From: Candidatus Omnitrophota bacterium
GTDB taxonomy: Bacteria > Omnitrophota > Gorgyraeia > Zapsychrales > Zapsychraceae
NCBI GenBank assembly: GCA_015232535.1
Contig: JADFZM010000001.1
Location: 35,263 to 99,262 of the forward strand
Length of the DNA: 64,000 nucleotides
Direction of reading: 5' to 3'
Every line of letters begins with the position of its first letter. The stretch's first letter is position 1. Made by a program: the position numbers and the translations under genes. This document shows, one piece after another, positions 2,885-39,765 of this stretch. A model generated the notes under the pieces. The model saw nothing but the letters and a program-made list of their open reading frames with translations. It did no database searches and was not told where the DNA came from.

Positions 2885-2897
2885 ATTTTATAAACCT

Positions 2898-4063: not shown

Positions 4064-5361
4064 TTTGATTCCTTTATTTTTAATAAAGCATTCTTTATTG
4101 AATGGGCTGTTTTGCTGATTGTTGAATTATCATGAGCGGATGAAACAAAACAAGCCTCATATGCCGAAGGAGGAAAAAGTATCCCTTCCTTAATTAAGAG
4201 GGAAAACAGCTTTGCGTATTTGTTTTTATCAGCCCTTAAGGCGTCTTTATGGCTCTTAACTTTTCCGGATGTGAAAAATACCGTAAAAATTGAGGCAATC
4301 GAGTTTATCGTTAAATCCATATTCAATTTAGCGGATTCTTCTTGAATAATCGCGGTAATTTGTCCGGTTTTTACCTCCAGAGTTCCGTAAATATTATCAT
4401 TTTTATTTAAAGTTTCAAGTGTTTTAATGCCGGCGGCTGTTGCAACCGGGTTACCGGAAAGCGTTCCGGCTTGATAAACAGGCCCTATGGGTGCCAAAAG
4501 CTCCATTATCTCTTTCTTACCGCCGACCGCGCCTATGGGAAATCCGCCGCCGATAATTTTTCCCAGGCAGGTCAGGTCGGGTTTAATATCATAAAATCCC
4601 TGCGCTCCGCCTAATCCTAGACGGAAGCCGGTGATAACTTCATCAAATATAAGCACTATTTTTTCTTTGAGCGTTATTTCACGTAATTTTTTAAGAAAAT
4701 CTTTTTCGGGTAAAACTACCCCTGTGTTGCACAAAACAGGTTCAACGATCACGCAGGCAATTTCATTCTTGTTCTTTTCGATAGCGGAATTCAGAGTTGC
4801 AATATCGTTAAAAGGAACGGAAATAGTGTCTTTAGTATAAGCCGGCAATATGCCCTCGCCCGAAGGAATCCCTAAGGTTAAATTTCCCGAGCCGCTTTTA
4901 ACCAAAAGGCTGTCGAAGTGGCCGTGATAACTGCCGTCAAACTTGATGATCTTTGTCTTTCCGGAAAATGCCCGGGCGAGGCGGATTGATGTCATGCAGG
5001 CCTCGGTGCCGGAGGTTACTAAACGTAACCTATCGATGCTTTTGATATTTTTCTTAATTAGTTCAGCGAGGCGGACTTCTCTTTCGGTTGCTAATCCGAA
5101 ACTCGAGCCGTTTCTAACCGCCGAAATAGCCGCTTTTACGACCGGCTCATAAGCGTGGCCTAATATCCCGACCCCCCAACTCATAACATAATCGATGTAT
5201 TTATTGCCTTTTGTATCGAATATATAAGGCCCGGTTGCTTTCTCGGCAAAGATTATCGGGGTTTCCATTGCTTTAAAACTCCGCACCGGAGAATTGACCC
5301 CTCCGACCAGAGATTTGATGCTTCTTTCGGAAATAGATTTTGGTTTATCAATTGCCATCAT
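4060..5361 (-). CDS. hemL: Glutamate-1-semialdehyde 2,1-aminomutase
   Basis: Class III aminotransferase fold, 433 aa, SLVGGVNSPVRSF ... YIDYVMSWG motifs typical of HemL. Confidence 0.93.
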   Translation of the reverse strand: MMAIDKPKSISERSIKSLVGGVNSPVRSFKAMETPIIFAEKATGPYIFDTKGNKYIDYVMSWGVGILGHAYEPVVKAAISAVRNGSSFGLATEREVRLAELIKKNIKSIDRLRLVTSGTEACMTSIRLARAFSGKTKIIKFDGSYHGHFDSLLVKSGSGNLTLGIPSGEGILPAYTKDTISVPFNDIATLNSAIEKNKNEIACVIVEPVLCNTGVVLPEKDFLKKLREITLKEKIVLIFDEVITGFRLGLGGAQGFYDIKPDLTCLGKIIGGGFPIGAVGGKKEIMELLAPIGPVYQAGTLSGNPVATAAGIKTLETLNKNDNIYGTLEVKTGQITAIIQEESAKLNMDLTINSIASIFTVFFTSGKVKSHKDALRADKNKYAKLFSLLIKEGILFPPSAYEACFVSSAHDNSTISKTAHSIKNALLKIKESK

Positions 5362-5843
5362 AATAAACTCCCAAGCGAGAGCATTTCTTTCTTAAGTTCT
5401 TTTCGGGTAAAGAGCACTGCCGGCTTGATGCGGAAACCCGCCCCTTTTTCATTGACAAAATTTCTGATCTCTTTTACTGATTTAGCGTGCATCATGGTAA
5501 ATGTATCGTAATTAAATGATTTATGCGGTGTTCTTTTATAACAATGCGAGATGCGGTCATCATCAATAAATGTCTTTTTTATGAACTCATCTTTATTGCC
5601 GCAGGTAAACCCGTCCATATTCCAGGCGATAAGTGCGTTTTTCGCGTAACCGGCCCTTTTGTGGTTAAGGACCCCTCGCAGATTCTTAATTATCTTTTTT
5701 TGAGAAAGTTTGTTCAGGATCGCTATTAGCTCCTCTTCTTGCATAAGCAAAGCCGCCGCGGCCTTTGTGAATGGACGGGGCGAGATCTCAAGCTCATTTT
5801 TAGAGAAATACCCGGCAACTTTCTTTTCTTTATCAGTTAACAT
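5358..5843 (-). CDS. Siroheme decarboxylase subunit (AhbA/AhbB, NirD/L/G/H family, AsnC-type HTH)
   Basis: About 160 aa AsnC-like HTH plus C-terminal domain; sits with a paralogous neighbour between radical SAM heme genes and hemL. Confidence 0.7.
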   Translation of the reverse strand: MLTDKEKKVAGYFSKNELEISPRPFTKAAAALLMQEEELIAILNKLSQKKIIKNLRGVLNHKRAGYAKNALIAWNMDGFTCGNKDEFIKKTFIDDDRISHCYKRTPHKSFNYDTFTMMHAKSVKEIRNFVNEKGAGFRIKPAVLFTRKELKKEMLSLGSLL

Positions 5844-6300
5844 TAAGGTTAAGCCTTAATTTATATAATTTTTCCGTAGGAAGGCTGACTATTTCCTTTG
5901 GTTTTAACTTCTTTTTCAATTCATCGAGATTAAATTTAAGCTCCTGTTTTGAGCGGGCGCTTAATGTGAACCACATGTTTAAGCGGTGTTCCCTTAAGTA
6001 ATTGTGGCTTATATTTTGTCGGTTATTGATTATTTCCCTAGTCGTTTTTATTTTCTCTTCGGGGATTTGACAACCGATCAAAGTGCTGACAAGCCCGAGC
6101 TTCTTCGTGTTAAAACTGAAATTAATCCTTTTAAGCAGTTTTTCCTTCTTAAGCCATTTAAGGCGCGAAATAAGCTCTCTTTCTTCGATCCCGCATGATT
6201 TTGCCAAGCTTTTATAAGGCTCGGCAGAGATCTCCAAGCCCTGCTGGGTTTTTGATAAAATACTTTTCATTAAATCGTCTAAATAATATTTCTTACTCAT
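5833..6300 (-). CDS. Siroheme decarboxylase subunit (AhbA/AhbB family), start moved to internal Met
   Basis: AsnC-type HTH (LAKSCGIEERELISRLKWLKKEKLL). The ATG at 6298-6300 forms an ATGA overlap with the upstream radical SAM stop; the ORF-track N-terminal extension would overlap that gene. Confidence 0.68.
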   Translation of the reverse strand: MSKKYYLDDLMKSILSKTQQGLEISAEPYKSLAKSCGIEERELISRLKWLKKEKLLKRINFSFNTKKLGLVSTLIGCQIPEEKIKTTREIINNRQNISHNYLREHRLNMWFTLSARSKQELKFNLDELKKKLKPKEIVSLPTEKLYKLRLNLNVN

Positions 6301-7316
6301 GAGGCAACCGCCTCTTTTGCTAAAACGCAAGTCCTGTCTTCGGACATAAAATCTCCCGTATCGGCAAAGGCCCTGGCGCGGCAACCGCGGCAAGAAATCT
6401 TATATCCGCAATCTCCGCAGCTTCCTCTGAGGTCATTTTTCCTCAATGCGTTAAACACAATCGATCCTTTCCAGACTTTCCCGATGGAATTCTTCCTTAA
6501 GTTACCGGCGGTAATGGGCAAGTATCCGCAGGGATAAACGTATCCTCTTGAGGAGATGAATAAAACCGATGTTCCCGCCAGGCATCCTCCGGACATTTTG
6601 CCTTCCGAAAACCTTACATATTGCGGGGCGCAAGTCGGGCGTATCTCTAAAGAAGATGACTCCGAGATGTTTTTTATTTCCCTAAGAGCTTCTTCAATAT
6701 CATTTGCCTCTAATCTTGATTTATCATCGATTTCCTTCCCGCAGCCGACCGGAACAAGAACAAAATAATGAACAGCCATGGCTTTTATCGAAAGAGCTAA
6801 ATCGGCGATTGTGCGGATTTCGTTAAGGTTGTTCTTGGTCACGGTAAAGTTGATTTGAAAAGGGATTTGCTCTTTCCTTAATATGTCAGCGGCATTCACG
6901 GTCTGTTTAAAGGCGCCTAAAACTCCCCGGGAAGAATCATGCTTCTTTTCATCGCTTGAATCAAGGCTTAGGCTGACGCGGCGGACACCGTATTTTTTTA
7001 TAAGGCCGGCCTCTTTCTCTTTTAATAGAACACCGTTAGTAGCTAAGGCCAAAGTTAATCCTTTTTGAGCGGCATAAAACATGATTTCAAAGATGTCTTC
7101 TCTTAATAAAGGCTCGCCGCCGCTTAAGACTAGAACGGAAGAGCCGAAGGATGTTTTTATAGAATCGATCAGGCGAAAGGCTTCGGCAGTTGTCAGCTCA
7201 TCGCCCGATTCGCTTTTTGTCATCCGGCAAAAGGCGCACTTAAGGCTGCACTTTTTTGTTGTTTCCCAAAATATCATTCTGGGGATCAGATCCACTTTGT
7301 TGCCTCCTTGGCCCAA
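6297..7316 (-). CDS. Radical SAM/SPASM protein of the NirJ-like AhbC/AhbD type (Fe-coproporphyrin synthase or heme synthase)
   Basis: CxxxCxxC cluster (CSLKCAFC), SGGEPLL glycine-rich SAM motif, C-terminal SPASM Cys cluster (GSCGDCGYKISCRGCRARAF). Confidence 0.75.
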   Translation of the reverse strand: MGQGGNKVDLIPRMIFWETTKKCSLKCAFCRMTKSESGDELTTAEAFRLIDSIKTSFGSSVLVLSGGEPLLREDIFEIMFYAAQKGLTLALATNGVLLKEKEAGLIKKYGVRRVSLSLDSSDEKKHDSSRGVLGAFKQTVNAADILRKEQIPFQINFTVTKNNLNEIRTIADLALSIKAMAVHYFVLVPVGCGKEIDDKSRLEANDIEEALREIKNISESSSLEIRPTCAPQYVRFSEGKMSGGCLAGTSVLFISSRGYVYPCGYLPITAGNLRKNSIGKVWKGSIVFNALRKNDLRGSCGDCGYKISCRGCRARAFADTGDFMSEDRTCVLAKEAVAS

Positions 7317-8275
7317 TAACTGATAATTATGTCCGCGCCGGCGCGTTTAATAGACTGAAGTATTTCAAGCGCAACCGACTTTTCGTCCAGCCACCCTTTT
7401 AAGTGCGCCGCTTTGACCATTGAATATTCTCCGCTGACATTGTATGCGGCTATAGGGATATTCACTTTATCGCGTATGGATTGTATTATATCCAGATAAG
7501 ACAAGGCCGGTTTCACCATGACTATATCCGCGCCTTCCTCGATATCGAGAAATATTTCGCGAATGGCCTCTCTTTTGTTGCCGAAATCCATTTGATACCC
7601 TTTTCTGTCGCTTCCCTTCGGGGTTGAATCGTATATCCCCCGGAACGGGCCGTAAAAATTCGAAGCATATTTTGCGGAATAACTAATAATTGATGTGTCG
7701 GTAAACCCGTTTTTGTCGAGGGTTTCTCTGATTGCTTTCACCTGCCCGTTTGCCATAGCGGACGGCGCAACCATATCCGCTCCCGCTTTAGCGTAAGAAA
7801 CGGCGATTTTGGCTAAAGTTTCCGCGGTTTTTGAGTCATCAATTTGAAGATGAGCCCCGTTTTTGCCGCTTGTTTTCTTAGCTATGCCGCAATGGCCGTG
7901 GTCTGTAAAAGCGCATAAGCATACATCAGCGATAATTATCAAATCGCTCGACTTTTTAATGTTCTTTATAGCCTTATGGAATTGGCTTTCTTCGTTATAA
8001 CTAGATGAGCCGGAGGAGTCTTTTTTAGGCGATGAACCAAAAAGCAAAATGCTTTTTATGCCGGACTTTCCCAAAGCCTCCGCCTCTCTAAGAAGGCATT
8101 CGCTCGAGAATTTATTAATGCCCGGCATCGAAGGCACAGCTTCGGTACCTTTGCCATCTTTGAAAAAGATAGGCATTATTAAATCATCAATATTTAATTC
8201 TGTTTCGCGCACTAAAGAACGTAACAGAGGGTTTTTTCTTAATCTGGTAGTCTTATTTTTGAGCGACAAAGGCAT
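7286..8275 (-). CDS. hemB: Porphobilinogen synthase (delta-aminolevulinate dehydratase)
   Basis: N-terminus MPLSLKNKTTRLRKNPLLRSLVRETELNIDDLIMPIFF aligns with classical HemB start; active-site region DVCLCAFTDHGHCG; the start at 8275 is an internal Met of the ORF-track call. Confidence 0.92.
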   Translation of the reverse strand: MPLSLKNKTTRLRKNPLLRSLVRETELNIDDLIMPIFFKDGKGTEAVPSMPGINKFSSECLLREAEALGKSGIKSILLFGSSPKKDSSGSSSYNEESQFHKAIKNIKKSSDLIIIADVCLCAFTDHGHCGIAKKTSGKNGAHLQIDDSKTAETLAKIAVSYAKAGADMVAPSAMANGQVKAIRETLDKNGFTDTSIISYSAKYASNFYGPFRGIYDSTPKGSDRKGYQMDFGNKREAIREIFLDIEEGADIVMVKPALSYLDIIQSIRDKVNIPIAAYNVSGEYSMVKAAHLKGWLDEKSVALEILQSIKRAGADIIISYWAKEATKWI

Positions 8276-8325
8276 TTTTATTAAATTGTTGAAATCGTTT
8301 ATATTGTTAAGCTGTTTGATCAAGG

Positions 8326-9483
8326 TTAAAGTATTGATTTTGATTCGTTTACTAAAACATCCTCTGTTTTTGTTGAAGTTTGCTCTAAGTAACAAGCCGG
8401 GTCTTCAGCCCAAAGTGAGCCGTAATAAGCCTTTGCCCGGGCCCGGCATCCGCCGCATATTTCTTTATGCCGGCAAGAACCGCAGCGGCCTTCTAAGTGG
8501 TCTTTCTTATTTCTAAATTGTTGAAGCAGTTCATTGTTCCGGTCGTTAAGAATATCAAATAGCGGTTTTTTGCGCACATTGCCTAAGAGCGAATCACGCA
8601 AGAATTGACATGGAAAAACGTCGCCGTTTGAATCAAGATAAACAACCCTATCCCCCGCAGAACAGCCGCGGTGCGCTGTTATGCATGAAACAGCCTCTTT
8701 TTTATCCGCAAGGTTTTCAAGCATAAAAATACCGTCTGCAGGATTATCGGTTGTAAGCACTTCAAATTCAGGGTCTTTAAGTGATATTTCTCGGACCTTA
8801 AGCAAGAATTTCTCCATTAATTTCCTTTTGTCCTCCAGAGGCAGGTCTTGTTCTGACGAAGCCCTTCCGGAATATACCAAATGATAAAGGCAGAAGCGCT
8901 TAGTGCCGCTTTGAACTGTTTTATCAAGCACATAAAATAGGTCATAACTATTTGAAGCGGTTAAAGTAAATCTTACCCCGGTTTTCACTCCGGAATTGTT
9001 TAAGAGCTTTATACCTTCCCAGCTTGCGTTAAATGAGCCGGTAGAGCCGCGGAAAATATCATGCCATTCTTCCCTGCCGTCTATGCTGACTCCTACATAA
9101 TCGACTTTGGCTTCTTTGATCTTCTTGGCCATTTTGGTATTTATCAAGGTGCCGTTAGTTGAAAGCCCGACGCGCAGCCCTTCGTCCTTGCAGGCTTTGA
9201 TAATATCGAAAATATTAGGGCGTAAAAGCGGCTCCCCTCCGCTAAGCAATACAATCGGGGGGTTTAGCTTCTTGATCTCACTTGCCAGGTTTATGCACTC
9301 TGTATCGGTAAAATCAGCTTCTTTTAATTCCGGAGATGATTCGCGATAACAATGAGCGCATTTTAAATTGCATTTGCTTATAATATTCCAGACAAACAAA
9401 GGGCCCATTGCCCTTAAGGTATGTTCGGTCCTCTCGCCTTTATGTATTTTAGTCCATGGGATCATAATGAATTCTCCAGGCAA
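8326..9483 (-). CDS. Radical SAM/SPASM protein of the NirJ-like AhbC/AhbD type
   Basis: CNLKCAHCY cluster, LSGGEPLL motif, C-terminal SPASM cluster (GRCGSCRHKEICGGCRARA). Confidence 0.75.
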   Translation of the reverse strand: MPGEFIMIPWTKIHKGERTEHTLRAMGPLFVWNIISKCNLKCAHCYRESSPELKEADFTDTECINLASEIKKLNPPIVLLSGGEPLLRPNIFDIIKACKDEGLRVGLSTNGTLINTKMAKKIKEAKVDYVGVSIDGREEWHDIFRGSTGSFNASWEGIKLLNNSGVKTGVRFTLTASNSYDLFYVLDKTVQSGTKRFCLYHLVYSGRASSEQDLPLEDKRKLMEKFLLKVREISLKDPEFEVLTTDNPADGIFMLENLADKKEAVSCITAHRGCSAGDRVVYLDSNGDVFPCQFLRDSLLGNVRKKPLFDILNDRNNELLQQFRNKKDHLEGRCGSCRHKEICGGCRARAKAYYGSLWAEDPACYLEQTSTKTEDVLVNESKSIL

Positions 9484-10970
9484 GATTTGATCAATCCGGC
9501 AACCGTATGTTCTTTTGCCGAATGTATCTGCCTTATCCCGATTTTCTTGAGCATCCCGGTTGTGACAGGGCCGATAGAATAAAACGGGGTCTCTTCGGTT
9601 AAGGAGCCGTTTATATTGCTTGGAATATTGGCAAAGAATGTTTTAACTGATTTAGGGCTTAAAAAGAATATTCCGTCGGACTTCTTGGCGAGGGCCTTGG
9701 CTATCCTTGTTTTATCGGGCTGCCCTTCAATGTTATACACTGTGCAATCGGTTAGCTTAGCCCCGGCTCTAATTAAAATTCCTTTTAGATAATCGCGGTC
9801 AAGGCTTGTGCGTAAAAGAGCGATATTTTTATCATTAATACCTTTATTTCTCAGAGCTATGGCTAAATTCCTGGTGGTGAACTTATCCGGCATAAGCGCC
9901 GGGTTTATACCGAATTTTATGAATTCTCCCGCTGTTCCTGACCCGACGCAAGCAATCCTTCCTTTTAGCAGGGTTTTATTTCTGTTTAATGCAAAAAATC
10001 TCTTCAGAAAATAATATACGCCGTGTCGGGAGGTAAAAACAAGCCAGTCAAAGGCCTTAATATCGGCGATTATGTTATCAAGGTATGATGTGTCCTTATT
10101 TGGAACGACTTTTATCATCGGTAGTCGTTCAACCTTAGCGCCTAATGATTCTAACCCGAGGGAAATATCATTGTTTAATGTTTCGCTGGCTGTTGAGATA
10201 AAACTTTTGTTTGAAAGAGGTTTTAAGTTAGGATTCAGGCGGTAAGCAAGCTTAACCGTATCGCCTATAACACAGATAGCCGGAGCTTTTAAATCAGCGG
10301 ATTTATTGGCGATCCGAGCTAAATTAGACATAACAACTTTTTCTTTATCCGTCGTGCCACTTTGAATGACAGCGGACGGAGTTTTAGGGTCTTTACCGAA
10401 GGCGATGAGTTTATCGGTTATTGATTTAAGGTTAGATAATCCCATCATGATTACTAGAGTTCCCGAGAAATTGGCGGCGTGTTTCCAGTTTATGCTTTCT
10501 TTTTCTTTAGACGGGTCTTCGTGGCCGGTTAAAACCATAAAACCGCTTGAAACGCCACGGAAAGTGAGAGGTATCCCGCACACTTCGGGAACAGAATAAA
10601 AAGAGCTTACTCCCGGAATAACTTCGCAATCAATATTGTTTTCTCTTAAAAACAGCATTTCTTCCTGGCCGCGGCCGAAAATAAAAGGATCGCCGCCTTT
10701 AACTCTGGCGACTGTCTTGCCTTTTGAGGCAAAAGATAGGATGGTTTGGTTTATCTTTTCTTGATCTATCGATCGTCCCTTTTCTTTTCCTACAAATTTT
10801 AAGATTGCGGATGGCTTGGCATATTTTAATATGTCTTTGGAAATAAGCCGGTCGAAAAGGATAACGTCTGATTTCTTCAGGCATTCAACGGCTTTGAGGG
10901 TTAAAAGCTTAGGGTCCCCCGGTCCTGAGCCGATCAAATAAACTTTTCCATTTTTTATTTTATTATTCAT
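9462..10970 (-). CDS. cobA: Uroporphyrinogen-III C-methyltransferase fused to uroporphyrinogen-III synthase
   Basis: N-terminal half has the SUMT signature (VYLIGSGPGDPKLLTLKA ... VARVKGGDPFIFGRGQEE); C-terminal half is HemD-like (AFDWLVFTSRHGV). Confidence 0.88.
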   Translation of the reverse strand: MNNKIKNGKVYLIGSGPGDPKLLTLKAVECLKKSDVILFDRLISKDILKYAKPSAILKFVGKEKGRSIDQEKINQTILSFASKGKTVARVKGGDPFIFGRGQEEMLFLRENNIDCEVIPGVSSFYSVPEVCGIPLTFRGVSSGFMVLTGHEDPSKEKESINWKHAANFSGTLVIMMGLSNLKSITDKLIAFGKDPKTPSAVIQSGTTDKEKVVMSNLARIANKSADLKAPAICVIGDTVKLAYRLNPNLKPLSNKSFISTASETLNNDISLGLESLGAKVERLPMIKVVPNKDTSYLDNIIADIKAFDWLVFTSRHGVYYFLKRFFALNRNKTLLKGRIACVGSGTAGEFIKFGINPALMPDKFTTRNLAIALRNKGINDKNIALLRTSLDRDYLKGILIRAGAKLTDCTVYNIEGQPDKTRIAKALAKKSDGIFFLSPKSVKTFFANIPSNINGSLTEETPFYSIGPVTTGMLKKIGIRQIHSAKEHTVAGLIKSCLENSL

Positions 10971-11862
10971 TAATCTTTTTCAACTGTATCTTTAAACTGG
11001 CGATTAAATTGTCTGTAATTCCTGAGGCATTGTCTTTCGCCCCTTTTTCACTTTCCTTTATGAAACATTTTGCTTTTTCGCTGTAATATTTCGCGTTTAT
11101 TGAAAAGTTGCCTTTAATAAATTTGGCATAAACACCGAACGGTGTCCGGCAACCTATTCCTAAAGCTTTCAATACATTTCTCTCTAAAAGAGCGGATTTC
11201 TCCGTTTCAATACAAGAGCTTTTTCTAAGAATACTGTTTAAATCCTTATCGTTATCCCTTGTTTGAGCGCAAATTATGCCTTGCCCGGCCGCAGGGACAA
11301 AGCTTTCGCTGTCGAAATACCGGACGATCAAGTTTTCATATCCTAATCGTTTCAAACCGCAAGCAGCCAATATAAGCCCGTCGTATTTGCCCCCGTTCAT
11401 CTTTCTGATGCGGGTATCGATATTCCCTCTTATGGGCAATACAATCGCTTTGGGCTCGATTTCTTGTATAAAGTACATCCGACGCGGGCTGTCTGTGCCG
11501 AGCTTCAAACCCGCGAGTTGGCCCGATTTTAAACCATCGCGCAGTACCAGGCAATCTCTTCGGTCTTCTCTTTTGGCGAAACAGGACAACTTAGTGCCTT
11601 TTTGAAGTTTCACCGGGACATCTTTTAAACTATGCACGGCGCAATCAATTTCTTTATTTATAAGTGCTCGCTCGATTTCTTTTGTGAAAATGCCTGTTCC
11701 GATAGCCGTAATCTTATTTTTGCGGTCCCGGTCGCCTTGGGTCAGGATAGTTTTTATCCGGTAATCAAGGTTTACATTCTTTCTTTTTAAAAAGGCTATG
11801 AATTCAAAGAGCTGTTTATTCGCTAAAGCGCTTTTCCTTATACCAAAGATTATTCTGCGCAT
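10963..11862 (-). CDS. hemC: Hydroxymethylbilane synthase (porphobilinogen deaminase)
   Basis: KTILTQGDRDRKNKITAIGTGIFTKEIERALINKEIDCAVHSLKDVP motif block. Confidence 0.9.
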   Translation of the reverse strand: MRRIIFGIRKSALANKQLFEFIAFLKRKNVNLDYRIKTILTQGDRDRKNKITAIGTGIFTKEIERALINKEIDCAVHSLKDVPVKLQKGTKLSCFAKREDRRDCLVLRDGLKSGQLAGLKLGTDSPRRMYFIQEIEPKAIVLPIRGNIDTRIRKMNGGKYDGLILAACGLKRLGYENLIVRYFDSESFVPAAGQGIICAQTRDNDKDLNSILRKSSCIETEKSALLERNVLKALGIGCRTPFGVYAKFIKGNFSINAKYYSEKAKCFIKESEKGAKDNASGITDNLIASLKIQLKKINE

Positions 11863-12905
11863 AAAAGTAACGAAGGAAGTACGCCTGTGTTCTTTTTCTG
11901 ATCGAGGTACATTTCCCTTCGGATTATCTCCTCCGCTTTGTTCGCTTCGATCGAGCGGCTATAGAGTGTTCTATCAATTACCGGCGATAAGTCATCGATA
12001 TTGTATAGCTTTACACCGGCAATATTCCTAACCGCTTCCTCAACATTTCGAGGCACGCCAAGATCGACGAAAATAATTCTTTTATGACGGCCGTGCAATA
12101 TCGCGCTCACCATATCTTTGCTGATAATATGAGGAGCGGCAGTGGCGGCGACAACTATATCTGAAAGCGCGATTTCTTTTGCTATCTTTGAGAAATCGGT
12201 AACGCGCACGTTAAGCTTAACTGCGGCGTTTTTGGCTTTTGCTATATCGCGGTTTGTAACAACGATTTCCTTAAGGGGAAGCTCGGATAGTTTCTTTGTT
12301 GTCATAACGCCTATTTTCCCGGCGCCGATTACAAGAATTCTTTTATTCGATAAATCCTGTTCCTTTTTAATAAGGTCGACAACAACTCCGGATATCGAGG
12401 TAACTCCGCGGGATATGCCGGTCAAGCTGCGAACTTTCTTCCCTATGCGCAGGGAATCCTGAATAGTTTTATGCAGTATAGAGCCTATTGCCTTTGATGA
12501 ATCGGCTTTTTCATAGGCCTTTTTGATCTGGCCGAGGATCTGGTTTTCTCCTAAAACCATTGAGTCCAGGCCGCTCGCCACCCGGTTAAGGTGTATGACC
12601 GCCTCTTCGTTGGTTTTATTGTAGAAGTAATGCTCAATATAACTTTGCGGTAATTTATGCGTGCGGCAGATAAAATTTGTCAGCTTAGCGGTAATTTTAG
12701 AAATGCTTTCTCCTACGGCATATATCTCGACCCGGTTACATGTTGAGAGCATCAAAGCCTCTTCTATATCCAAATTGGATGATAGTTCGCGGTAATATTT
12801 ACTCAGCGATTTATCCTCAAAGCTGAATTTTTCGCGTATTTCTAGCGGGGCCTTTTTGTGGTTTGTCCCGATAAGAACAATATTTAAGTTATTGCTGATA
12901 GGCAT
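11850..12905 (-). CDS. hemA: Glutamyl-tRNA reductase
   Basis: LSTCNRVEIY catalytic Cys motif; NADP-binding LVIGAGKIG. Confidence 0.9.
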   Translation of the reverse strand: MPISNNLNIVLIGTNHKKAPLEIREKFSFEDKSLSKYYRELSSNLDIEEALMLSTCNRVEIYAVGESISKITAKLTNFICRTHKLPQSYIEHYFYNKTNEEAVIHLNRVASGLDSMVLGENQILGQIKKAYEKADSSKAIGSILHKTIQDSLRIGKKVRSLTGISRGVTSISGVVVDLIKKEQDLSNKRILVIGAGKIGVMTTKKLSELPLKEIVVTNRDIAKAKNAAVKLNVRVTDFSKIAKEIALSDIVVAATAAPHIISKDMVSAILHGRHKRIIFVDLGVPRNVEEAVRNIAGVKLYNIDDLSPVIDRTLYSRSIEANKAEEIIRREMYLDQKKNTGVLPSLLLCAE

Positions 12906-13677
12906 GATGGCTTACCATAAACAGGCTTACGCCGAAGAAAGTTGTTAACATGGCTAAAAATCCCACAACCGAGATGACCGATAGCCAAAAGTGTTTAAGT
13001 TTAAATGCTTTTTCCAGGATCACAGCCAAAGCGTAAATTATAAGGGTGATTAGCGCCCAGGTCTCTTTTGGGTCCCAGTTCCAATAAGTTCCCCAGGCTG
13101 TATGCGCCCAAATCGAGCCGGTCGCTATGCCGAAGAATAAAAGTATTACTCCGAAAATAATAAGGCCGCTATTCAAAGGCTGAAGGCCTTTTGTGTCTTT
13201 GCCCCTTTTCTCGGCGATTATCGAATAAACGCTTATAGCAAAAGAAATCCCAAAGGCGCTGTAACTTAAAATAATTGCCGGAACGTGTATTCCCAGCCAA
13301 AAACTTTTTAAGAGCGGGTTAAGCGGTTGGATTGTTTTATCCAGCGTTAGGTCGTATATTAAGATAATATCAAACAATAAAAACGCCAATCCCTGTATGA
13401 TCTTCCCGGTATTTTCTTTGATAAAAATGATATAGACAGCGCTTAAAAGCCAGGCGTAAAAATAAGTGATCTCAAAAAGCGAGACCATTGGCAGATGCCC
13501 CTGTTCGCGGTACCTTATAATAAGGTAAAAGAAACCGGCGGTTAAAGCGACTATCAGCCATTGCTTTGAGTAAGTGAAAAAAACGGGCTGCTTTTTGGAA
13601 ACGAAAAGAAGATACAAAACAGTCCCGATCAGATAAAAGAATGCGGATGTATAGAAAAATAATATGTTATATTGCAT
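12889..13677 (-). CDS. CcsA/HemX-family cytochrome c assembly membrane protein
   Basis: Polytopic membrane protein with Trp-rich WWD motif (WAHTAWGTYWNWDPKETWALI) and conserved His residues; it occupies the hemX position of the hem operon. Confidence 0.78.
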   Translation of the reverse strand: MQYNILFFYTSAFFYLIGTVLYLLFVSKKQPVFFTYSKQWLIVALTAGFFYLIIRYREQGHLPMVSLFEITYFYAWLLSAVYIIFIKENTGKIIQGLAFLLFDIILIYDLTLDKTIQPLNPLLKSFWLGIHVPAIILSYSAFGISFAISVYSIIAEKRGKDTKGLQPLNSGLIIFGVILLFFGIATGSIWAHTAWGTYWNWDPKETWALITLIIYALAVILEKAFKLKHFWLSVISVVGFLAMLTTFFGVSLFMVSHHAYQQ

Positions 13678-14122
13678 TAGCTAGTTTATCCCTAATTGCT
13701 TTTGCTTTTGCCGGGCTTTGGCCGTTTGTAGAAATACCTATGGTCAGCCCTTTTCTTTTTAATATTGCCGGCATTATTATTGAGCCCGGCCCGCTTTTAT
13801 CTACTACATTGACTAAGGTATTCGCTTTATTAGCGTCGGATAATACTTTCTTATTGACTTTAGCGTTATCTGTTGCCGCTACTATCAATTTATATTTCTT
13901 TAATGAAATATTCTTAGGATAAAGGGATTTTATGCATTTTATCTTCCCTTTTGACCTTAAACGTTCAATCGGCGCGATTATTTCCGGGCTGATACAGGTA
14001 ATTTTTGCCCCGAAATTTCTGAAGACCGATATTTTCCTATAAGCTACTTTTCCTCCGCCGACGACCAAACAATTTTCGCCTTTTACCTTGAGGCATACCG
14101 GCATATAGCTGCATAATTTCAT
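13667..14122 (-). CDS. Precorrin-2 dehydrogenase / sirohydrochlorin ferrochelatase (SirC/CysG N-domain type)
   Basis: Rossmann GGGKVA motif (CLVVGGGKVAYRKI); about 150 aa; first gene of the heme operon. Confidence 0.78.
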   Translation of the reverse strand: MKLCSYMPVCLKVKGENCLVVGGGKVAYRKISVFRNFGAKITCISPEIIAPIERLRSKGKIKCIKSLYPKNISLKKYKLIVAATDNAKVNKKVLSDANKANTLVNVVDKSGPGSIIMPAILKRKGLTIGISTNGQSPAKAKAIRDKLANAI

Positions 14123-14132
14123 GTCAGTTAAT

Positions 14133-15323
14133 TTACCTCTTTTTTAAAATAATATGACAAACATTACATTTCCCGCGGTATTCATGCGGGGAAACAGCTC
14201 CTTTTAATATAGGAGGAGGATTAGGCAAAATATCTCCCGCATCAGTCGGCAGCTGTCCTCCTGTTTTCATAATAATATGACAGGCGGTACAAGGCTTATT
14301 ACGGCTTCTGTGCGGGCTAAGAGCTCCGGGTGTTATCGGTTGAGCGGCCTCGTTTTGTGAAAACCCTAAACTTCTTTTTGATGAAATAGTATATTCGATG
14401 ATTTGCCCTCTGCGGGAAACTATAACCTTAGCCTTAAACCTGTTTTTTACCATTCTGGTTGCTTCAGTAAAAGCAACTAAATCCGGGGTGGCTATCTTTT
14501 CAATTCCAACAACCATATCTCCGGCCAAAACTCCCGATTCAGCCGCCTCGAGAGATATCTCATCGATCAACAACCCCTTTGTATTCGGCGGGATATTGAA
14601 TTCCGTGGCTAACTCAGGCGTAAGGGGAATAAGCTCCATACCGAGCCAATGCCCTTCGATAAGTTCTTTCGATGCCGCCCCTTGCTCTTTAGGAGTAGGC
14701 AGCTGCAAATTAGGGTCAACCGGAGCCGCATTCATTGTGCCGGCTTCGGCTGTTTCTGCCGGAGAATTATTGGCAAAAGCGATTTGATGAGCCGCAGGAT
14801 CGGCATTGTTTTGCTGTTGGGGTTTAGCTTCTAAGGGTACAGAGTTAGAATCCCCGGGAGCGTTTTTACCCGTAACGCCCATATCAAGGTTAAAAACGCG
14901 CTTGATATTGTCATGAATGCCTAATTTGTTTTCCAGGGTTATATAAAGCGGCTGGCCGTTTCTTAATATATCTAAAAGAGCGCCTTGGTCCAAGCTTGTA
15001 TCTTTCGTAACCTTTAGAAAGTCGGATATTTTCTTTGTTTTCTTATTATTGATCGATTTTATAAGGTCTCCGCTGCGTACACCCGAACTGTAAGCCGGAT
15101 CCTCACACCAATTTACAACAACCCCAGCTTCATCTTTCGGTATATAAAATTCCATGGCATTAGCCGGTGTGATATCGCTTACCGACATTCCGGCCCACTC
15201 TGCCTCACCTGCCCCGATGTGCATCAGCGCCGCGAGAAAAATAAGGCCTATCAAGCAAACGGATAATATAAGGAAGAACCTTTGCTTGTTTTTATGTTTA
15301 TATTCGGCTAAGATGTTAGGCAT
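14133..15323 (-). CDS. Membrane-anchored PDZ-PDZ protein with two C-terminal CxxCH heme motifs of magnetochrome type (MamP / MamE-Cter-like)
   Basis: N-terminal TM, two PDZ-like segments (GVRSGDLIKSI; GVLAGDMVVGIEKI), then SPHRSRNKPCTACHIIM and SPHEYRGKCNVCHIIL. Confidence 0.6.
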   Translation of the reverse strand: MPNILAEYKHKNKQRFFLILSVCLIGLIFLAALMHIGAGEAEWAGMSVSDITPANAMEFYIPKDEAGVVVNWCEDPAYSSGVRSGDLIKSINNKKTKKISDFLKVTKDTSLDQGALLDILRNGQPLYITLENKLGIHDNIKRVFNLDMGVTGKNAPGDSNSVPLEAKPQQQNNADPAAHQIAFANNSPAETAEAGTMNAAPVDPNLQLPTPKEQGAASKELIEGHWLGMELIPLTPELATEFNIPPNTKGLLIDEISLEAAESGVLAGDMVVGIEKIATPDLVAFTEATRMVKNRFKAKVIVSRRGQIIEYTISSKRSLGFSQNEAAQPITPGALSPHRSRNKPCTACHIIMKTGGQLPTDAGDILPNPPPILKGAVSPHEYRGKCNVCHIILKKR

Positions 15324-15335: not shown

Positions 15336-15611
15336 TTAGTCTTTTTTGATGGAGGCTTTTTCTTCTGGTTTTAACTCGATCCGCTCAATTGCCGTATTAC
15401 AATCTTTACAGACCCAAAGTTGTCTTTTAGACCCGGTCATGTATAAGCCCATAATGAGTAAGGGTATCCCCAGAACCGGACCGATGAAAAAAAGCGATGA
15501 AAATACACCGCCAACTATTAATACTCCTCCGAATTTACGGCTGTGGCGCGGCCCGGAATAAGGCTGCATTTCTCCGTTACACAAATTACAAATAAGCGAT
15601 TTATCAGACAT
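15336..15611 (-). CDS. Small membrane protein with split zinc-ribbon (CxxC ... CxxC) flanking a TM hairpin
   Basis: CNLCNGEM at N-terminus, hydrophobic core, CKDCNTAI at C-terminus; 91 aa. Confidence 0.45.
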   Translation of the reverse strand: MSDKSLICNLCNGEMQPYSGPRHSRKFGGVLIVGGVFSSLFFIGPVLGIPLLIMGLYMTGSKRQLWVCKDCNTAIERIELKPEEKASIKKD

Positions 15612-15878: not shown

Positions 15879-17411
15879 TTATCTGGGTTTCTTACCGATT
15901 CCGACTTTAACCGAGCTTGGTGCTTGCTGTTGCGTTGTATTCCCCATTATCTGATGACAATTTGAGCAGACTCCCCTATATTCGTGCGTCATTGCAGCAT
16001 TAGGCGAAATAGGCGGCGCTGTTACTTGCACTTGTTGAGCTGCCTGAGCTACCGGAGCAAAGCCCTGATTATTGAAGTTTTGCTGGGCATTATATTGATT
16101 CGGGTAATAAGCACCTCCACGGGCCATGATCTGTTTGCAGTTAGGGCAACGGGGAAATTCATTGGCGCCGTTTTGTGAATACATCCTCCAATTGCAATTT
16201 GGACAAAGGAAATAACCGAGCGATTCCTGTCCTTGCCAGAAGTTTGGCTGGTTAACAGTCGGATTCGCTTGCATTTGGTTTTGCATTTGATTCGGCATTT
16301 GATTTGCCGCTAATTCCGGCAATTGCGGCCAACCGTTATTTGCCATATCTTTTGCCATCTGTGATCCGCAATTCGGGCAATTAGGATAACCATTGCCTGT
16401 GTTGGCAGCTTTTAATCTCCAGTTGCAAGAGGGACAAACAAATGGCTGTTCTCCCCACCCAAATGCAACTTGTGTCCCCGGGTTGAGTTTATTCATTGTA
16501 TCAGGATCGGGTAAATTCATCCCTTGTACCATTGCCCCTTGCATCCATCCCTGGCGCGGAAGCGGACAGACCGGACGCATTACATTCATATTCTGCATCC
16601 CCCATCCTGCATTCATCGCATCCGGCATCAATTGTCCGGCGGTAGGATATACTTGCCCGATAGGATTCATATCCTGAATTCCGAACGCTACACCCTGCCC
16701 GGGAATTTGCTGTTGCATTCTCAAGCGGCAATTGGGGCAAATCGGGCATATGTTAGAGTTGTTATTTCCGGCTTGCTGAAACTTACAATTGGGGCAGTAA
16801 AACATACAGCCCCCTCCCTGTCCTTGGCCGGCAAAACCGGCTTGGGCTACGGGCATACTATTCGCTTGCATTTGGCCTGGATTAATGGGTAATGAAGCTT
16901 GGCCGATCCTTGCCTGACGGTAAAGGTTAATTACTTTCTTGGTCGAGCCCGTATACCCGCCGAAAACTCGAATTCCGAATTGCATCAGAATATTATAACT
17001 TTGCGGGTCGATATTTCCGACAATAACCGCTTCCTCTCCTTTTCCCGCCACCAGATAAGCGATTTGCGGGTTAGGAACAGTGCCGTAATAAAGGTTCGGG
17101 ATCGCCTCCTCGAGTTTCTTTGTAAGAGGGTTTATTACTAAGAAGAATTTGGCTTGCTGCAATGAAGGCGCGACATTCGAATTAAAAGTGGAATTATCAG
17201 CGGCAACAACGATTTTTCCGCAAGCCGGATTACCTTGATTTTTAGACTTAATGTCAGGTGAGAATATGGCGTATACGCCAATAAGTAAAACAAGGATAAT
17301 AGAGGCAAAGATAAAATATGTGTTCATATCCATATCCTTTACCCTGGCTTTAAAATCCTCAACGGTTATCGTAGGGATTTTGCTTGTTTTGGCTTTCATA
17401 TTCTTTATCAT
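15879..17411 (-). CDS. Chimeric membrane protein: TM anchor, NifX/NifB-C-like (Nitro_FeMo-Co-type) domain, Gln/Asn/Met-rich region with three CPxC...CPNC knuckle pairs, and a C-terminal magnetochrome-type CxxCH
   Basis: FFLVINPLTKKLEEAIPNLYYG ... AYLVAGKGEEAVIVGNIDPQSYNILMQFGIRVFGG; CPNC/CPSC pairs spaced 11-13 aa; THEYRGVCSNCHQIM near the C-terminus. Confidence 0.6.
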   Translation of the reverse strand: MIKNMKAKTSKIPTITVEDFKARVKDMDMNTYFIFASIILVLLIGVYAIFSPDIKSKNQGNPACGKIVVAADNSTFNSNVAPSLQQAKFFLVINPLTKKLEEAIPNLYYGTVPNPQIAYLVAGKGEEAVIVGNIDPQSYNILMQFGIRVFGGYTGSTKKVINLYRQARIGQASLPINPGQMQANSMPVAQAGFAGQGQGGGCMFYCPNCKFQQAGNNNSNICPICPNCRLRMQQQIPGQGVAFGIQDMNPIGQVYPTAGQLMPDAMNAGWGMQNMNVMRPVCPLPRQGWMQGAMVQGMNLPDPDTMNKLNPGTQVAFGWGEQPFVCPSCNWRLKAANTGNGYPNCPNCGSQMAKDMANNGWPQLPELAANQMPNQMQNQMQANPTVNQPNFWQGQESLGYFLCPNCNWRMYSQNGANEFPRCPNCKQIMARGGAYYPNQYNAQQNFNNQGFAPVAQAAQQVQVTAPPISPNAAMTHEYRGVCSNCHQIMGNTTQQQAPSSVKVGIGKKPR

Positions 17412-17448: not shown

Positions 17449-18036
17449 TCATTTTAACATCGGCGAATAAGGTATAGCCGGACCGAAGACCGGAGAACCG
17501 AGCTGCCAGCTACCTTTATTTGTGCCCATTAAAGGCCCGTATTGATAATCGAAGGGAATTGTTATGAATATCTTCTTCCCATCGCGATATACATCCAGGA
17601 AAATACCTCCGGAGTATTTCACATTATTAGCCAGGTCGGCAAAATCCTGGGCGGATTTTATAGGTTTTTGTCCGATGGAAACTATCACATCCCCTGATTT
17701 AATCCCGTACTTTTGAGCAGGGCCAAGGCCTTCGTCCAGTACAAGCACCCCTTTTATCTTTTTTGGAATTTTGAATTCTTTCCTTAAACTGCGGGAAAGA
17801 TATATCACATTCATACCGATCCAGTTCATACTATCGCCTGGTTCGATCAGAGTATTTTTAACGGCAGTTGTCGGTTCGGTTCGTTCAGGCGCTTCGGGAA
17901 TAATTTCTAAAGATGATAATATCCAGCAGAAGGCTATAATAGAGAAGATAACAATACCGACAAACATTACCGGTTCCTTTTTCGCGAATTCCTTAACCTT
18001 GATTTTAAAATTATTGAATTCTTTATTTTTTTTCAT
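17449..18036 (-). CDS. Membrane-anchored PDZ domain protein
   Basis: N-terminal TM, PDZ core (KGVLVLDEGLGPAQKYGIKSGDVIVSIGQKPIKSAQDFADL). Confidence 0.7.
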   Translation of the reverse strand: MKKNKEFNNFKIKVKEFAKKEPVMFVGIVIFSIIAFCWILSSLEIIPEAPERTEPTTAVKNTLIEPGDSMNWIGMNVIYLSRSLRKEFKIPKKIKGVLVLDEGLGPAQKYGIKSGDVIVSIGQKPIKSAQDFADLANNVKYSGGIFLDVYRDGKKIFITIPFDYQYGPLMGTNKGSWQLGSPVFGPAIPYSPMLK

Positions 18037-18039: not shown

Positions 18040-19467
18040 TTATTGTATTTTTACCAGAATTTCGTCTGTTTTGCCGTTTCTTAATATTCTAACGTTTACC
18101 CCGTCTCCGCTTTTAAAGTGCGCGACTACATTCCTTATATCCTCGGCTGATTTAATTGGTACACCGGCTATAGCGACAACTATATCTCCCCTTTGTATCC
18201 CGGCGAAACTAGCCGGCGATTCGTCCAATACCCTATTTACCAAAACCCCTTTCCACGGAGATATTTTGAATTGCCGCGCGATTATCTCGTTTATAGGCAT
18301 AACTTCTAATCCGAAACGTACCGGAAGCGGCGCTCCGGGCGCGGGATTGGTTGTGGGCAAAGCCGCGGCCAGCATACCTTTTCTATCAACCGGAAGAGGG
18401 AAATTTCTTTTTAAAGCCTTTCCTAAGAAATCTTTGCAATCATTTATCGGAATAGCGAAACCTGTGCCGCTAAAAACACCGGTCGGAGCGTAAATTGCCG
18501 TATTAATGCCGATGACATCTCCGTTTAAGTCAACCAGCGGCCCACCCGATGAGCCGCGATTTATAGGAGCATCGGTTTGGAATAAATTTTGGTAACGGAT
18601 TCCTTCAATCAAGATCGATTTTCTTATCCCGCTAATGATACCGCTGGTGACGGTTTGCTCTATCCCGAAGGGGCTTCCAACGGCAACAACGTAATCGCCT
18701 ATTTGGCTGAAACTGGAATCGCCTAATTTTACCTCGGGGAACGGGCCGTCCGCTCTTAATTTTACGAGCGCTAAATCTAAATTCGGTTCCTCCGCTACGA
18801 TGTCTGCCCTTATATCGCGGGAGGGATTGCCAAAGACCGTAACTATAATATCGGTCGCGTCTTTTGTTACGTGATAATTAGTGAGCACGTAGCCGCGTTC
18901 ATCGATCACAATCCCTGCTCCGACATTTTCGTAACCTTTATTCTCGATGAATTTATCAATGGCACCGTCGAAGGGCGGAACAAATTGCATGTTTTGCGCA
19001 TCGGCAGGTTTCCTTATGTTCGTTCGAACAACCCTGATCGCGTGTATATCGCATACGGAAGGAATTATGGCGTTTACAGCATCTTTTAATGAATTTTGAA
19101 ACTTGCTATCGGTATTCGCGACTAACTGCATACCGCCGTTAGGAGTAGCTTTAGTTATTGCCGCGACTTTATAATTGGAAGACGGATTTTGATTTGGCTG
19201 ATAAGGAACACCTCCGTTAGGAAGAGCTTGGGTTATCGCCTGTGCCTGAGTATAGGCTGCTTGAGTGACCGGGGACGGAAATTGGGGCTCTCCTGCCTTT
19301 GGCATCTTGATTTTTGCCCTGGTATTTACAGTTTCGGTCTCAATTCCCTGGTTTATGTCTTCATGCCGCATTATTACCCAGAAAAGGAGCATAACCCCGA
19401 CTACGGCAAGCGCCGCAATCCAGGGCCCGAGAGGCTTTGTGCAAAATGAATCGTTAGGGTCTTCCAT
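18040..19467 (-). CDS. HtrA/DegP-family trypsin-like serine protease with C-terminal PDZ and N-terminal TM anchor (MamE-like)
   Basis: Intact catalytic triad: LTNYHV (His), DLALVKL (Asp), NRGSSGGPLVD (Ser); PDZ GIQRGDIVVAIAGVPI; no CxxCH in this polypeptide. Confidence 0.85.
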   Translation of the reverse strand: MEDPNDSFCTKPLGPWIAALAVVGVMLLFWVIMRHEDINQGIETETVNTRAKIKMPKAGEPQFPSPVTQAAYTQAQAITQALPNGGVPYQPNQNPSSNYKVAAITKATPNGGMQLVANTDSKFQNSLKDAVNAIIPSVCDIHAIRVVRTNIRKPADAQNMQFVPPFDGAIDKFIENKGYENVGAGIVIDERGYVLTNYHVTKDATDIIVTVFGNPSRDIRADIVAEEPNLDLALVKLRADGPFPEVKLGDSSFSQIGDYVVAVGSPFGIEQTVTSGIISGIRKSILIEGIRYQNLFQTDAPINRGSSGGPLVDLNGDVIGINTAIYAPTGVFSGTGFAIPINDCKDFLGKALKRNFPLPVDRKGMLAAALPTTNPAPGAPLPVRFGLEVMPINEIIARQFKISPWKGVLVNRVLDESPASFAGIQRGDIVVAIAGVPIKSAEDIRNVVAHFKSGDGVNVRILRNGKTDEILVKIQ

Positions 19468-38987: not shown

Positions 38988-39019
38988 ATTGATTCTCCTT
39001 TAAAACAGAATGGTTAAGA

Positions 39020-39247: not shown

Positions 39248-39272
39248 TCTTGCTCCCTTCCATTATATTAGT

Positions 39273-39295
39273 CGTGAATTTGATAATCATTATCA
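39273..39295. promoter_or_regulatory. Fur box (gtgaatttGATAATCATTATCag) in the feoA-feoA-feoB promoter
   Basis: 19 bp palindromic Fur consensus match 25 nt upstream of the feoA start. Confidence 0.6.
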
Positions 39296-39314
39296 GTAAA
39301 TTCTCAAAAAAATA

Positions 39315-39749: not shown

Positions 39750-39765
39750 TTTGTCGCTTTATGAA

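Follow-up and report, generated by a model that had tools for sequence, protein, structure and literature searches.

A NifX-like domain, Cys4 ribbons and a magnetochrome on one predicted membrane-anchored protein of Omnitrophota-type magnetosome gene clusters

In Desulfovibrio magneticus RS-1, Rahn-Lee et al. (2015, PMC4287615) described DMR_41100, formerly called 'mamT' or 'mamP-like', as a protein with an N-terminal magnetochrome, a PDZ domain, and a C-terminal NifX/NifB domain, and renamed it FmpB. Frameshift alleles of fmpB led to fewer particles, the neighbor FmpA is a multi-PDZ protein, and the FmpB domains were regarded as redox domains (PMC4287615). A 2025 study from the same laboratory (PMC12748827) reported that FmpA and FmpB each contain 'denitrogenase Fe-Mo' domains and that the two proteins are enriched on early-stage magnetosomes; the fmpA and fmpB mutations were predicted to eliminate the Fe-Mo-type domains, and the crystals of the mutants were fewer, smaller, or misshapen. 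The role of these NifX-type domains in magnetite biomineralization is a question that comes from the sole system for genetics among deep-branching magnetotactic bacteria (PMC4287615, PMC12748827). Here we analyzed a 64,000-nucleotide stretch of DNA (the window) from Candidatus Omnitrophota bacterium (GenBank assembly GCA_015232535.1, contig JADFZM010000001.1, positions 35,263 to 99,262 of the forward strand). Profile scans of the window proteins showed that its minus strand carries a magnetosome gene cluster (MGC), and one gene of this cluster encodes a 510-residue protein that joins a NifX-like domain, three Cys4 ribbons, and a magnetochrome. Judged by gene content and order, the gene is a conserved, MGC-specific core component of the Omnitrophota-type cluster. 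Its product is probably an FmpB-like lumenal factor for iron redox or iron handling, early in magnetite biomineralization.

The sequence-only reading of this gene had proposed a 510-residue chimera with an N-terminal signal-anchor, a NifX/MTH1175-like region, a Q/N/M/G-rich low-complexity segment with three CP..C...CPNC knuckle pairs, and a single C-terminal magnetochrome. All of these parts held up (Table 1), and no outcome that this reading had named as refuting was observed. The predicted membrane helix follows a basic tail, the NifX-like region gives a significant profile match, the linkers agree in composition and are P-rich as well, the knuckle cysteines lie exactly where they had been placed (C206/209/225/228, C326/329/345/348, and C403/406/422/425), and one CSNCH motif is found at residues 482 to 486 (nucleotides 15954 to 15968). 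The open reading frame (ORF) starts with ATG, with an AAGGA Shine-Dalgarno sequence 6 nt upstream. Among 5.8 billion proteins, a homolog search identified 63 relatives, and about 60 homologs have the plan in common; an alignment of 32 full-length members provides the invariance counts given below. One database entry (P0001), encoded on a 112.8-kb contig, matches with 100% identity; NCBI lists it as 'MAG: magnetochrome domain-containing protein [Candidatus Omnitrophica bacterium]'. M1 is nearly invariant and aligns with the N termini of 31 homologs.

The N-terminal tail contains a conserved '(E)EF..R.K.ADLN' segment and seven K/R residues, against three in the 24 residues past the helix. Residues F33, I34, F35, G45, A48, and F50 of the signal-anchor are invariant, and almost all of the 63 relatives keep a transmembrane anchor near residue 30, the few exceptions including N-terminally truncated fragments. 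Because c-type heme is attached only on the periplasmic or lumenal side and the heme motif is at the far C terminus, the prediction of a type II (N-in) single-pass membrane protein, with everything past residue 51 in the periplasm or the magnetosome lumen, is strongly supported. In the AlphaFold2 (AF2) model and by composition, the folded modules of this exported part are held apart by disordered, uncharged tethers. No twin-arginine motif is visible in the 510-residue sequence. Two other export readings were dropped: export of a pre-loaded cofactor by the Tat route, as the N-terminal tail has no RR, and a lipoprotein reading of 'GNPAC', in which the Cys lies 13 residues past the helix and N and P at positions −3 and −2 do not suit a lipobox.

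The NifX-like identity of residues 63 to 170 is secure from profile and model comparisons, despite a sub-threshold score of the single sequence. Residues 78 to 165 match Pfam Nitro_FeMo-Co (PF02579) over profile positions 3 to 93 of 94 (E=4.8e-5), at 24.0 bits against a gathering score of 26.3; a precomputed PF02579 match is present in many orthologs. When a 17-sequence profile of the domain was compared with the PDB, it matched MTH1175 (1eo1, E=4.6e-16), TM1290 (1rdu, 1.9e-14), TM1816 (1o13, 3e-9), and the Desulfovibrio orange protein ORP (2wfb, 2.2e-8). The AF2 model has a predicted local distance difference test score (pLDDT) of about 90 over the domain and the three-layer alpha/beta fold of the PF02579 family. 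Foldseek matched this model to TM1816, TM1290, ORP, PH0822, MJ0327, the NafY core, and NifX in the NifEN complex (E=1.7e-7 to 2.6e-4; target-normalized template-modeling scores of 0.60 to 0.79), with 1o13, 1rdu, 2wfb, 2yx6, 1p90, and 9ian_F among the structures matched. About 25 core positions are invariant, for example A122, K124-G-E-E-A128, D135, Y139, F150-G-G-Y153, and several Tyr, and so are all of N61, P62, A63, C64, and G65 directly before strand 1. Relatives in PF02579 bind inorganic clusters that are already assembled, among them NifB-co, FeMo-co, and a Mo-Cu-S cluster, and NifX, NafY, and ORP hold them non-covalently with few protein ligands. The domain is not a cytoplasmic, nif-encoded NifX or NafY proper: it follows a signal-anchor and shares its chain with a c-type heme motif, and no nif genes turned up in the scanned parts of the 64-kb window.

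At the other end of the protein, the magnetochrome scores above the Pfam cutoff, has the upstream His signature typical of magnetochrome proteins, and is encoded in an MGC. P466, H476, R479, G480, C482, C485, and H486 are invariant and fit the signature P..I...H.(Y/F)RG.CxxCH. The only two His residues of the whole protein are H476 and H486, both invariant and both inside this domain. H476 is a candidate distal ligand, and the pair could supply both axial heme ligands, which fits a predicted self-contained bis-His heme; magnetochromes reportedly have such bis-His ligation.

The gene is found in an MGC, and in the same slot, in all of the about 23 loci examined: MamE, a PDZ-only protein, the family gene, small ORFs, and MamP. 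No member was found outside an MGC among these loci. We scanned 185,579 species-representative genomes with patterns specific to the family and obtained 19 loci, of which 17 are in Omnitrophota metagenome-assembled genomes (MAGs) and two in genomes labeled Planctomycetota or Planctomycetales. The Omnitrophota MAGs nearly all bear Lin-lab isolate names for magnetotactic bacteria. By tblastn, 18 of the 19 loci, as well as loci L001 and L002, show the order HTH-(FixC)-MamE-PDZonly-family gene-s91-MamP (HTH, helix-turn-helix gene; s91, a 91-residue protein), followed by a block of heme-biosynthesis genes or directly by MamB-MamM-MamA-MamQ; the nineteenth locus is a 3.4-kb fragment with only MamE and the family gene. 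Atypical members hold the same slot, namely, the ribbon-less P0045, the distant P0082 and P0062 of 347 to 358 residues, and the heme-less six-ribbon P0018. This fixed synteny weakens the idea of an ordinary periplasmic cytochrome of respiration that happens to have mam genes as neighbors. The idea could draw on the single c-type heme motif and on the FixC/FixX-like and heme-biosynthesis genes nearby, but the heme motif scores above the curated magnetochrome cutoff, the position between MamE and MamP is kept in every examined locus with or without heme or FixC genes, and no member was found elsewhere. We find it scarcely credible.

A magnetochrome and a NifX/NifB domain on one protein were already known from FmpB, of which the Omnitrophota protein is a permuted, ribbon-bearing variant. 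The sequence-only reading, which could place the combination in no described Mam family, therefore went too far in this respect. It stands for the exact architecture, which begins with NifX, has an array of ribbons but no PDZ, and ends in one C-terminal magnetochrome: we did not find it described in the searchable literature, where absence is not proof. The Omnitrophica MGC papers examined do not mention it, and literature searches yielded the FmpB papers only.

An exhaustive hidden Markov model (HMM) search of 1.84 billion proteins with the NifX profile gave 2,611 at E<=1e-3, and together with Pfam scans it revealed three MGC-linked NifX architectures. Class A is the present family, a transmembrane anchor followed by NifX, zero to six ribbons, and zero to two magnetochromes (MCR). 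Class B is FmpB-like (P0073, P0075, P0095, P0134, and others; about 500 to 590 residues), with a signal peptide or transmembrane segment, two to four MCR, a PDZ, and two NifX domains. Class C consists of giant proteins of 900 to 1500 residues, named examples coming from Desulfamplus and Planctomycetota MAGs, with a transmembrane segment, two PDZ, two to four NifX domains, and Cys4 ribbons of the signature CPxC..VPHP.GVPCSSL.CPxCG, without a heme motif; they may be FmpA-like. An example class C locus has MamI, MamA, MamQ, cation diffusion facilitator (CDF), trypsin, and FeoB genes as neighbors. The NifX-type domain is thus not an oddity of RS-1 but recurs in MGC proteins in at least three architectures and under several taxonomic labels, and Cys4 ribbons repeatedly accompany it. 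In the MGC of P0073, the order MamB-[MCR-PDZ-NifXx2]-multiPDZ equals the RS-1 order mamB-fmpB-fmpA by locus tag. Between the NifX-like domain of the window protein and the two NifX domains of P0073, sequence identity is 35% and 31%; both N-terminal magnetochromes of P0073 align with the magnetochrome of the window protein. Pfam detected no PDZ family in the 510-residue protein at E<=10, and a PDZ is encoded by the separate gene directly upstream; the two genes thus hold the domain inventory of FmpB, permuted and split. We also noted that class C members (P0064, of 1516 residues, at L023 6709-11259; P0065-P0070, P0074, and P0078-80) have two PDZ, two to four NifX-like domains, and two to five ribbons, and that P0082 and P0062 have a class C-type ribbon in second position. 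The closest cytoplasmic stand-alone NifX-like proteins (P0101, P0105, P0107, and P0114) have a C-terminal '(G)MGRGMG' repeat and then a tail that looks like a coiled coil.

Between the two terminal domains, ribbons 2 and 3 together have eight Cys residues, every one of them kept in 32 of 32 homologs, far beyond chance. Ribbon 2 has the consensus F(V/I)CPxCNWR(M/L)K..QGN.FPxCPNCGS.MA, with P327, N330, W331, P343, P346, N347, M352, and A353 invariant besides the four Cys; ribbon 3 has FxCPNCNWRMY.Q.G.NEFPxCPNC.QIMAR.G, with F401, C403, P404, C406, W408, C422, P423, N424, and C425 invariant. Ribbon 1 occurs only in a subset of homologs. The structure prediction suggested by the sequence-only reading gave hairpin Cys4 ribbons: AF2 models all three as beta-hairpin knuckles at pLDDT 70 to 90. 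The linkers contain 17.7% Q, 11% N, 8.3% M, 11% G, and 10.5% P, and only 5% charged residues. No curated family matched the ribbons significantly (best Pfam match, Zn_ribbon_TiaS, 16.7 bits against a cutoff of 27.3), nor did any PDB entry in a profile comparison (best E=0.017). Foldseek with the model of ribbons 2 and 3 gave only non-significant local matches (best E=0.41; 33 to 45 aligned columns; root-mean-square deviation, 1.8 to 2.8 Å), which split equally between Zn(Cys)4 ribbons (MCM, Sir2, and Trm1) and Fe(Cys)4 centers (desulforedoxin and desulfoferrodoxin). Membership in the rubredoxins was rejected, as no rubredoxin family or structure matched significantly. On the models, the ribbons likely form Cys4 metal sites with Zn or Fe.

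The ribbon cysteines might instead form structural disulfides in small exported knots, with C64-C282 as a further disulfide. The whole region is extracytoplasmic, where CxxC pairs oxidize readily, and C64 does co-occur with a partner Cys. However, the CPxC-x15-CPxCG spacing and the modeled two-hairpin ribbon have the classical geometry of metal knuckles, the CxxCH on the same chain must stay reduced for heme attachment, and the hosts are anaerobes or microaerophiles. We therefore regard disulfide knots as very unlikely. Should the ribbons hold iron, they could form a lumenal electron wire, in which Fe(Cys)4 sites of the rubredoxin or desulforedoxin type relay electrons between the heme and the NifX-like domain, which would hold a redox-active Fe-S cluster. 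The invariant CPxC...CPxC knuckles, the local fold matches to desulforedoxin (1dxg), desulfoferrodoxin (1dfx/2ji1), and rubredoxin (2kn9), the iron-rich compartment, and the view of Rahn-Lee et al. that the FmpB domains are redox domains would suit such a wire. Those fold matches, however, are non-significant (E>=0.4) and include as many Zn(Cys)4 ribbons, and no rubredoxin family matched. Moreover, the number of ribbons ranges from none to six, ribbon-less members (P0045, P0049-52, and P0056) hold the same genomic slot, and disordered linkers of 30 to 85 residues with variable length leave no fixed distances for a relay. Such copy number variation and floppy, variable spacing disfavor a fixed wire, which we consider quite unlikely.

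Across the 63 relatives, the number of CxxCH motifs varies as well, from none to two. In P0018 two ribbon types alternate, and the pair of ribbon 2 and ribbon 3 has thus been duplicated there as a unit. More constant is the Cys before the NifX-like domain. C64 is present in 56 of 60 non-fragment members, and 54 of these 56 also have a lone partner Cys, which is the linker 'CP(L/I/M)P' Cys alone in 29 (C282 in the window protein), a C-terminal 'C-(V/I/P)-(V/I/L)-(R/K)' Cys alone in 20, and both in five. Six further relatives outside the 60-member set obey the same rule, and the CP(L/I/M)P-type lone Cys is found in 35 of 62 members. This co-occurrence points to C64 and the distal Cys acting as a pair of ligands, or as a disulfide clamp, in the NifX-like domain.

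The extreme C-terminal motif, G-x-C-(V/I/P)-(V/I/L)-(R/K)-COOH, is conserved in some members (P0009, P0013, P0018, P0019, P0021, P0024, P0031, P0034, P0036, P0039-44, P0047, P0048, P0053-55, P0067, P0082, and P0103) and absent from the window protein. It is largely mutually exclusive with the linker Cys and co-occurs with the pre-NifX Cys. A CaaX-like meaning of the C-terminal C-(V/I)-(I/L)-(R/K) was set aside, the motif being missing from the window protein, and the Cys was kept only as an alternative partner of C64; we know of no bacterial machinery for CaaX-like processing.

The invariant residues also bear on the possibility that no cluster is bound at all and that the protein is a scaffold or a protease or PDZ client. 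The NifX-like domain and the ribbons would then be protein-protein modules and the linkers, with their recurrent 'QVAFG(W)G' strands, PDZ ligands or MamE cleavage sites, and the protein would organize, or be processed by, MamE, the PDZ-only protein, and MamP. These three always flank the gene, the architecture is that of beads on a string with long disordered linkers, a hydrophobic 'QVAFG' recurs before ribbons and '(R/H)(V/I)x(I/L)G' near the C terminus, and FmpB has its PDZ in cis. The extreme conservation of C64 and of the NifX core, where some 25 positions do not vary (K124-G-E-E127, D135, and several Tyr among them), is nevertheless more typical of a ligand site, and a heme domain would have no role in a pure scaffold. 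We judge this alternative to be unlikely.

For the FmpB-like iron factor, an early role in biomineralization is proposed by analogy with FmpB, FmpA, and MamP. The heme would exchange electrons with Fe(II)/Fe(III), and the NifX-like domain would hold an iron species or a small iron cluster near the membrane, with C64 and the distal lone Cys (C282) as possible ligands or a possible disulfide clamp. Each ribbon would be an accessory Cys4 bead carrying Zn or Fe. Several points weigh against this proposal. Any ligand of the NifX-like domain would have to be acquired after export, because a protein without a twin-arginine motif would be exported unfolded and could not bring along a cluster assembled in the cytoplasm. 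In place of the 'H/RFGR' loop that is canonical for the NifX fold, the domain has 'PSLQQ'. The coupling of C64 to a partner Cys, with three of the four members that lack C64 having neither partner and one having one (Fisher p=0.001), is measured by a statistic that ignores phylogeny. The comparison with FmpB rests on published descriptions and on the FmpB-like class B proteins. Finally, in per-domain HMM scores the NifX copies of classes B and C reach 57 to 86 bits versus 70 to 90 bits for cytoplasmic stand-alone MTH1175-like proteins. We therefore claim no special kinship of the NifX-like domain with the class B and C copies and no common MGC descent; the domain may have been recruited independently rather than share descent with FmpB.

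The Omnitrophota version is compact, with one NifX domain, one heme motif, and a short list of candidate ligands, namely, C64, its partner Cys, and the invariant KGEE/D/Y set. If the domain carries iron clusters, this would bear on how magnetite nucleation is fed. Exported NifX-like domains, often together with Cys4 ribbons, recur as an MGC module. One could go further and see in them a widespread, overlooked module of deep-branching magnetotactic bacteria that carries small polynuclear iron (Fe-O or Fe-S) clusters and feeds crystal nucleation, a nitrogenase-cofactor chaperone fold thus having been repurposed as a mineral-precursor chaperone; in this family the cluster would be clamped by C64 and the distal Cys and poised by the heme and Fe(Cys)4 knuckles in the magnetosome lumen. 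Such a generalization is quite unlikely at present.

Table 1. Parts of the 510-residue protein and other genes of the magnetosome gene cluster, in nucleotide positions of the window (aa, amino acid residues)
Feature	Position	Strand	Evidence or remark
Whole ORF	15879..17411	−	510 aa: transmembrane anchor, NifX-like domain, low-complexity linkers bearing three Cys4 ribbons, single magnetochrome
N-terminal basic tail (aa 1-30), predicted cytoplasmic	17322..17411	−	7 K/R vs 4 D/E
Signal-anchor transmembrane helix (aa 31-51), predicted	17259..17321	−	hydropathy peak 2.68 at aa 33; AF2 helix 29-50
'GNPAC64G' motif directly before strand 1 of NifX-like domain	17217..17234	−	32/32 invariant
NifX/NafY/MTH1175/ORP-fold domain (aa 63-170)	16902..17225	−	Pfam, profile vs PDB, AF2, Foldseek
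Linker 1 (aa 171-201), Q/G/A/P-rich, predicted disordered	16809..16901	−	pLDDT <50
Ribbon 1 (aa 202-235), C206/C209...C225/C228 plus extra C202, C222	16707..16808	−	pLDDT 79-86, beta-hairpin
Linker 2 (aa 236-320), Q/N/M/G/P-rich; lone C282 in 'RPVCPLPR', 'QVAFGWG' motif	16452..16706	−	pLDDT <50
Ribbon 2 (aa 321-353), C326/C329/C345/C348	16353..16451	−	pLDDT 84-91
Linker 3 (aa 354-399), 'NQMPNQMQNQMQ' low complexity	16215..16352	−	pLDDT <50
Ribbon 3 (aa 400-432), C403/C406/C422/C425	16116..16214	−	pLDDT ~82
Linker 4 (aa 433-465), Q/N/A-rich	16017..16115	−	pLDDT <50
Magnetochrome domain (aa 466-491)	15939..16016	−	Pfam MCR (PF18509) 36.9 bits vs 30.4 cutoff
MamQ/LemA	101-805	−	
MamA/tetratricopeptide repeat	844-1689	−	
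Two CDF transporters, MamB/M	1931-3788	−	
Heme-biosynthesis gene block	4060-14122	−	
MamP (PDZ + two magnetochromes), downstream partner	14133-15323	−	NCBIfam MamP E=7.5e-62; two MCR stretches
91-aa small protein s91, CxxC...hydrophobic stretch...CxxC	15336..15611	−	50-72% identity in L001-L020
61-aa small ORF, Cys-rich after transmembrane helix	15631-15816	−	detected in some loci only
PDZ-only protein, 195 aa, N-terminal hydrophobic segment; upstream partner	17449..18036	−	PDZ_2 E=2.9e-8, MamP-PDZ E=1.2e-13
MamE-like HtrA protease, one PDZ, no magnetochrome	18040..19467	−	NCBIfam MamE E=5.4e-74; Trypsin_2, PDZ_2

Both small ORFs lie between the gene and MamP, and the cluster further contains a 73-residue transmembrane protein, a MamI-like 56-residue ORF, FixX- and FixC-like genes, and an HTH gene. 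Two loci with Planctomycetota labels, L005 (uncultured Planctomycetales) and L021 (Planctomycetota nwagbin3), have family members at 51 to 73% domain identity, L005 with the full Omnitrophota-type gene order. Mis-binning is one explanation for these members, lateral transfer the other. According to Lin et al. (2020), the Mam proteins of Fe3O4-type Planctomycetota and Omnitrophota form a common cluster. The MGCs of the distant members P0082 and P0062 (loci L024 and L025) have an extra NifX-domain protein of about 185 residues between MamI and MamE (L024 4676-5239 and L025 5049-5603).

The heme block, situated between MamB/M and MamP, is an apparently complete sirohaem-dependent (Ahb-type) pathway inside the MGC. 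It comprises a HemL-like gene, two NirDL/AhbAB-like and two radical-SAM/SPASM (AhbC/D-like) genes, HemB, a CobA-HemD fusion, HemC, HemA, a CcsA/HemX-like PF01578 protein, and precorrin-2 dehydrogenase. Besides the window, six of the 19 genome loci have the block (L001/L008, L003, L007, L012, L013, and L016), and elsewhere MamP is directly followed by MamB; a FixC-like gene lies upstream in five of the six. We found no mention of heme genes in Lin et al. (2020). At L026, a PF01578 (CcsA/HemX-like) gene (8466-9176) sits between MamP and MamB. As this MGC keeps the gene without the rest of the block, the PF01578 protein may help to mature magnetochromes and not regulate HemA.

About 10 kb upstream of the MGC, two adjacent actin-like genes (28991-30196 and 30147-31181, minus strand) match Volactin (PF25216; E=6e-71 and 2e-73). 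The pair is a possible candidate for the magnetosome-chain cytoskeleton (compare MamK and Mad28); in L001 and L002, the equivalent upstream regions lack it. Also upstream, 36649-47666 on the minus strand encodes FeoB, Fur, a UbiE-like methyltransferase, a PstSCAB-like phosphate ATP-binding cassette transporter, and a P-type cation ATPase. The FeoB/Fur iron-uptake and regulation neighborhood may be functionally linked to the MGC.

The ribbons of the window protein have two CPxC knuckles on beta-hairpins like zinc ribbons (MCM, Sir2, Trm1, and HVO_2753-like) and the knuckles of rubredoxin and desulforedoxin, but unlike those families they carry a family-specific CNWRM signature; to our knowledge an extracytoplasmic location is unusual for such modules. 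With NifX, NafY, the NifB C-terminal domain, MTH1175, TM1290, TM1816, and ORP the protein shares the fold and significant profile similarity. These relatives are soluble proteins of the cytoplasm, either stand-alone or in nif or Mo contexts, whereas the present domain is predicted to be exported and tethered to the membrane; it has no 'H/RFGR' loop, and an invariant Cys is added in front of strand 1. MamP, which is said to be a magnetosome iron-redox protein, belongs to the same operon and likewise is exported and has magnetochromes, but it consists of a PDZ and two magnetochromes, without NifX domain or ribbons. NCBIfam models do not assign the window protein to MamP (21.9 bits against 300) or MamT (22 against 200), only the magnetochrome stretch matching. 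FmpA (DMR_41090, 'MamE-Cter') and class C likewise have MGC-encoded, transmembrane-anchored NifX-like domains, in class C also with Cys4 ribbons between the NifX domains. FmpA and class C have two to three PDZ, one to four NifX domains, and no heme over 900 to 1500 residues, and their ribbon signature is a different one. FmpB and class B also carry a magnetochrome and a NifX/NifB-type domain on one exported MGC polypeptide next to a PDZ protein. Class B lacks the ribbon array and the Q/N/M-rich tethers (it has no non-heme CxxC), and FmpB differs in its reversed order, SP/TM-MCRx2-4-PDZ-NifXx2 (SP, signal peptide; TM, transmembrane) against TM-NifXx1-ribbons-MCRx1 in the Omnitrophota protein.

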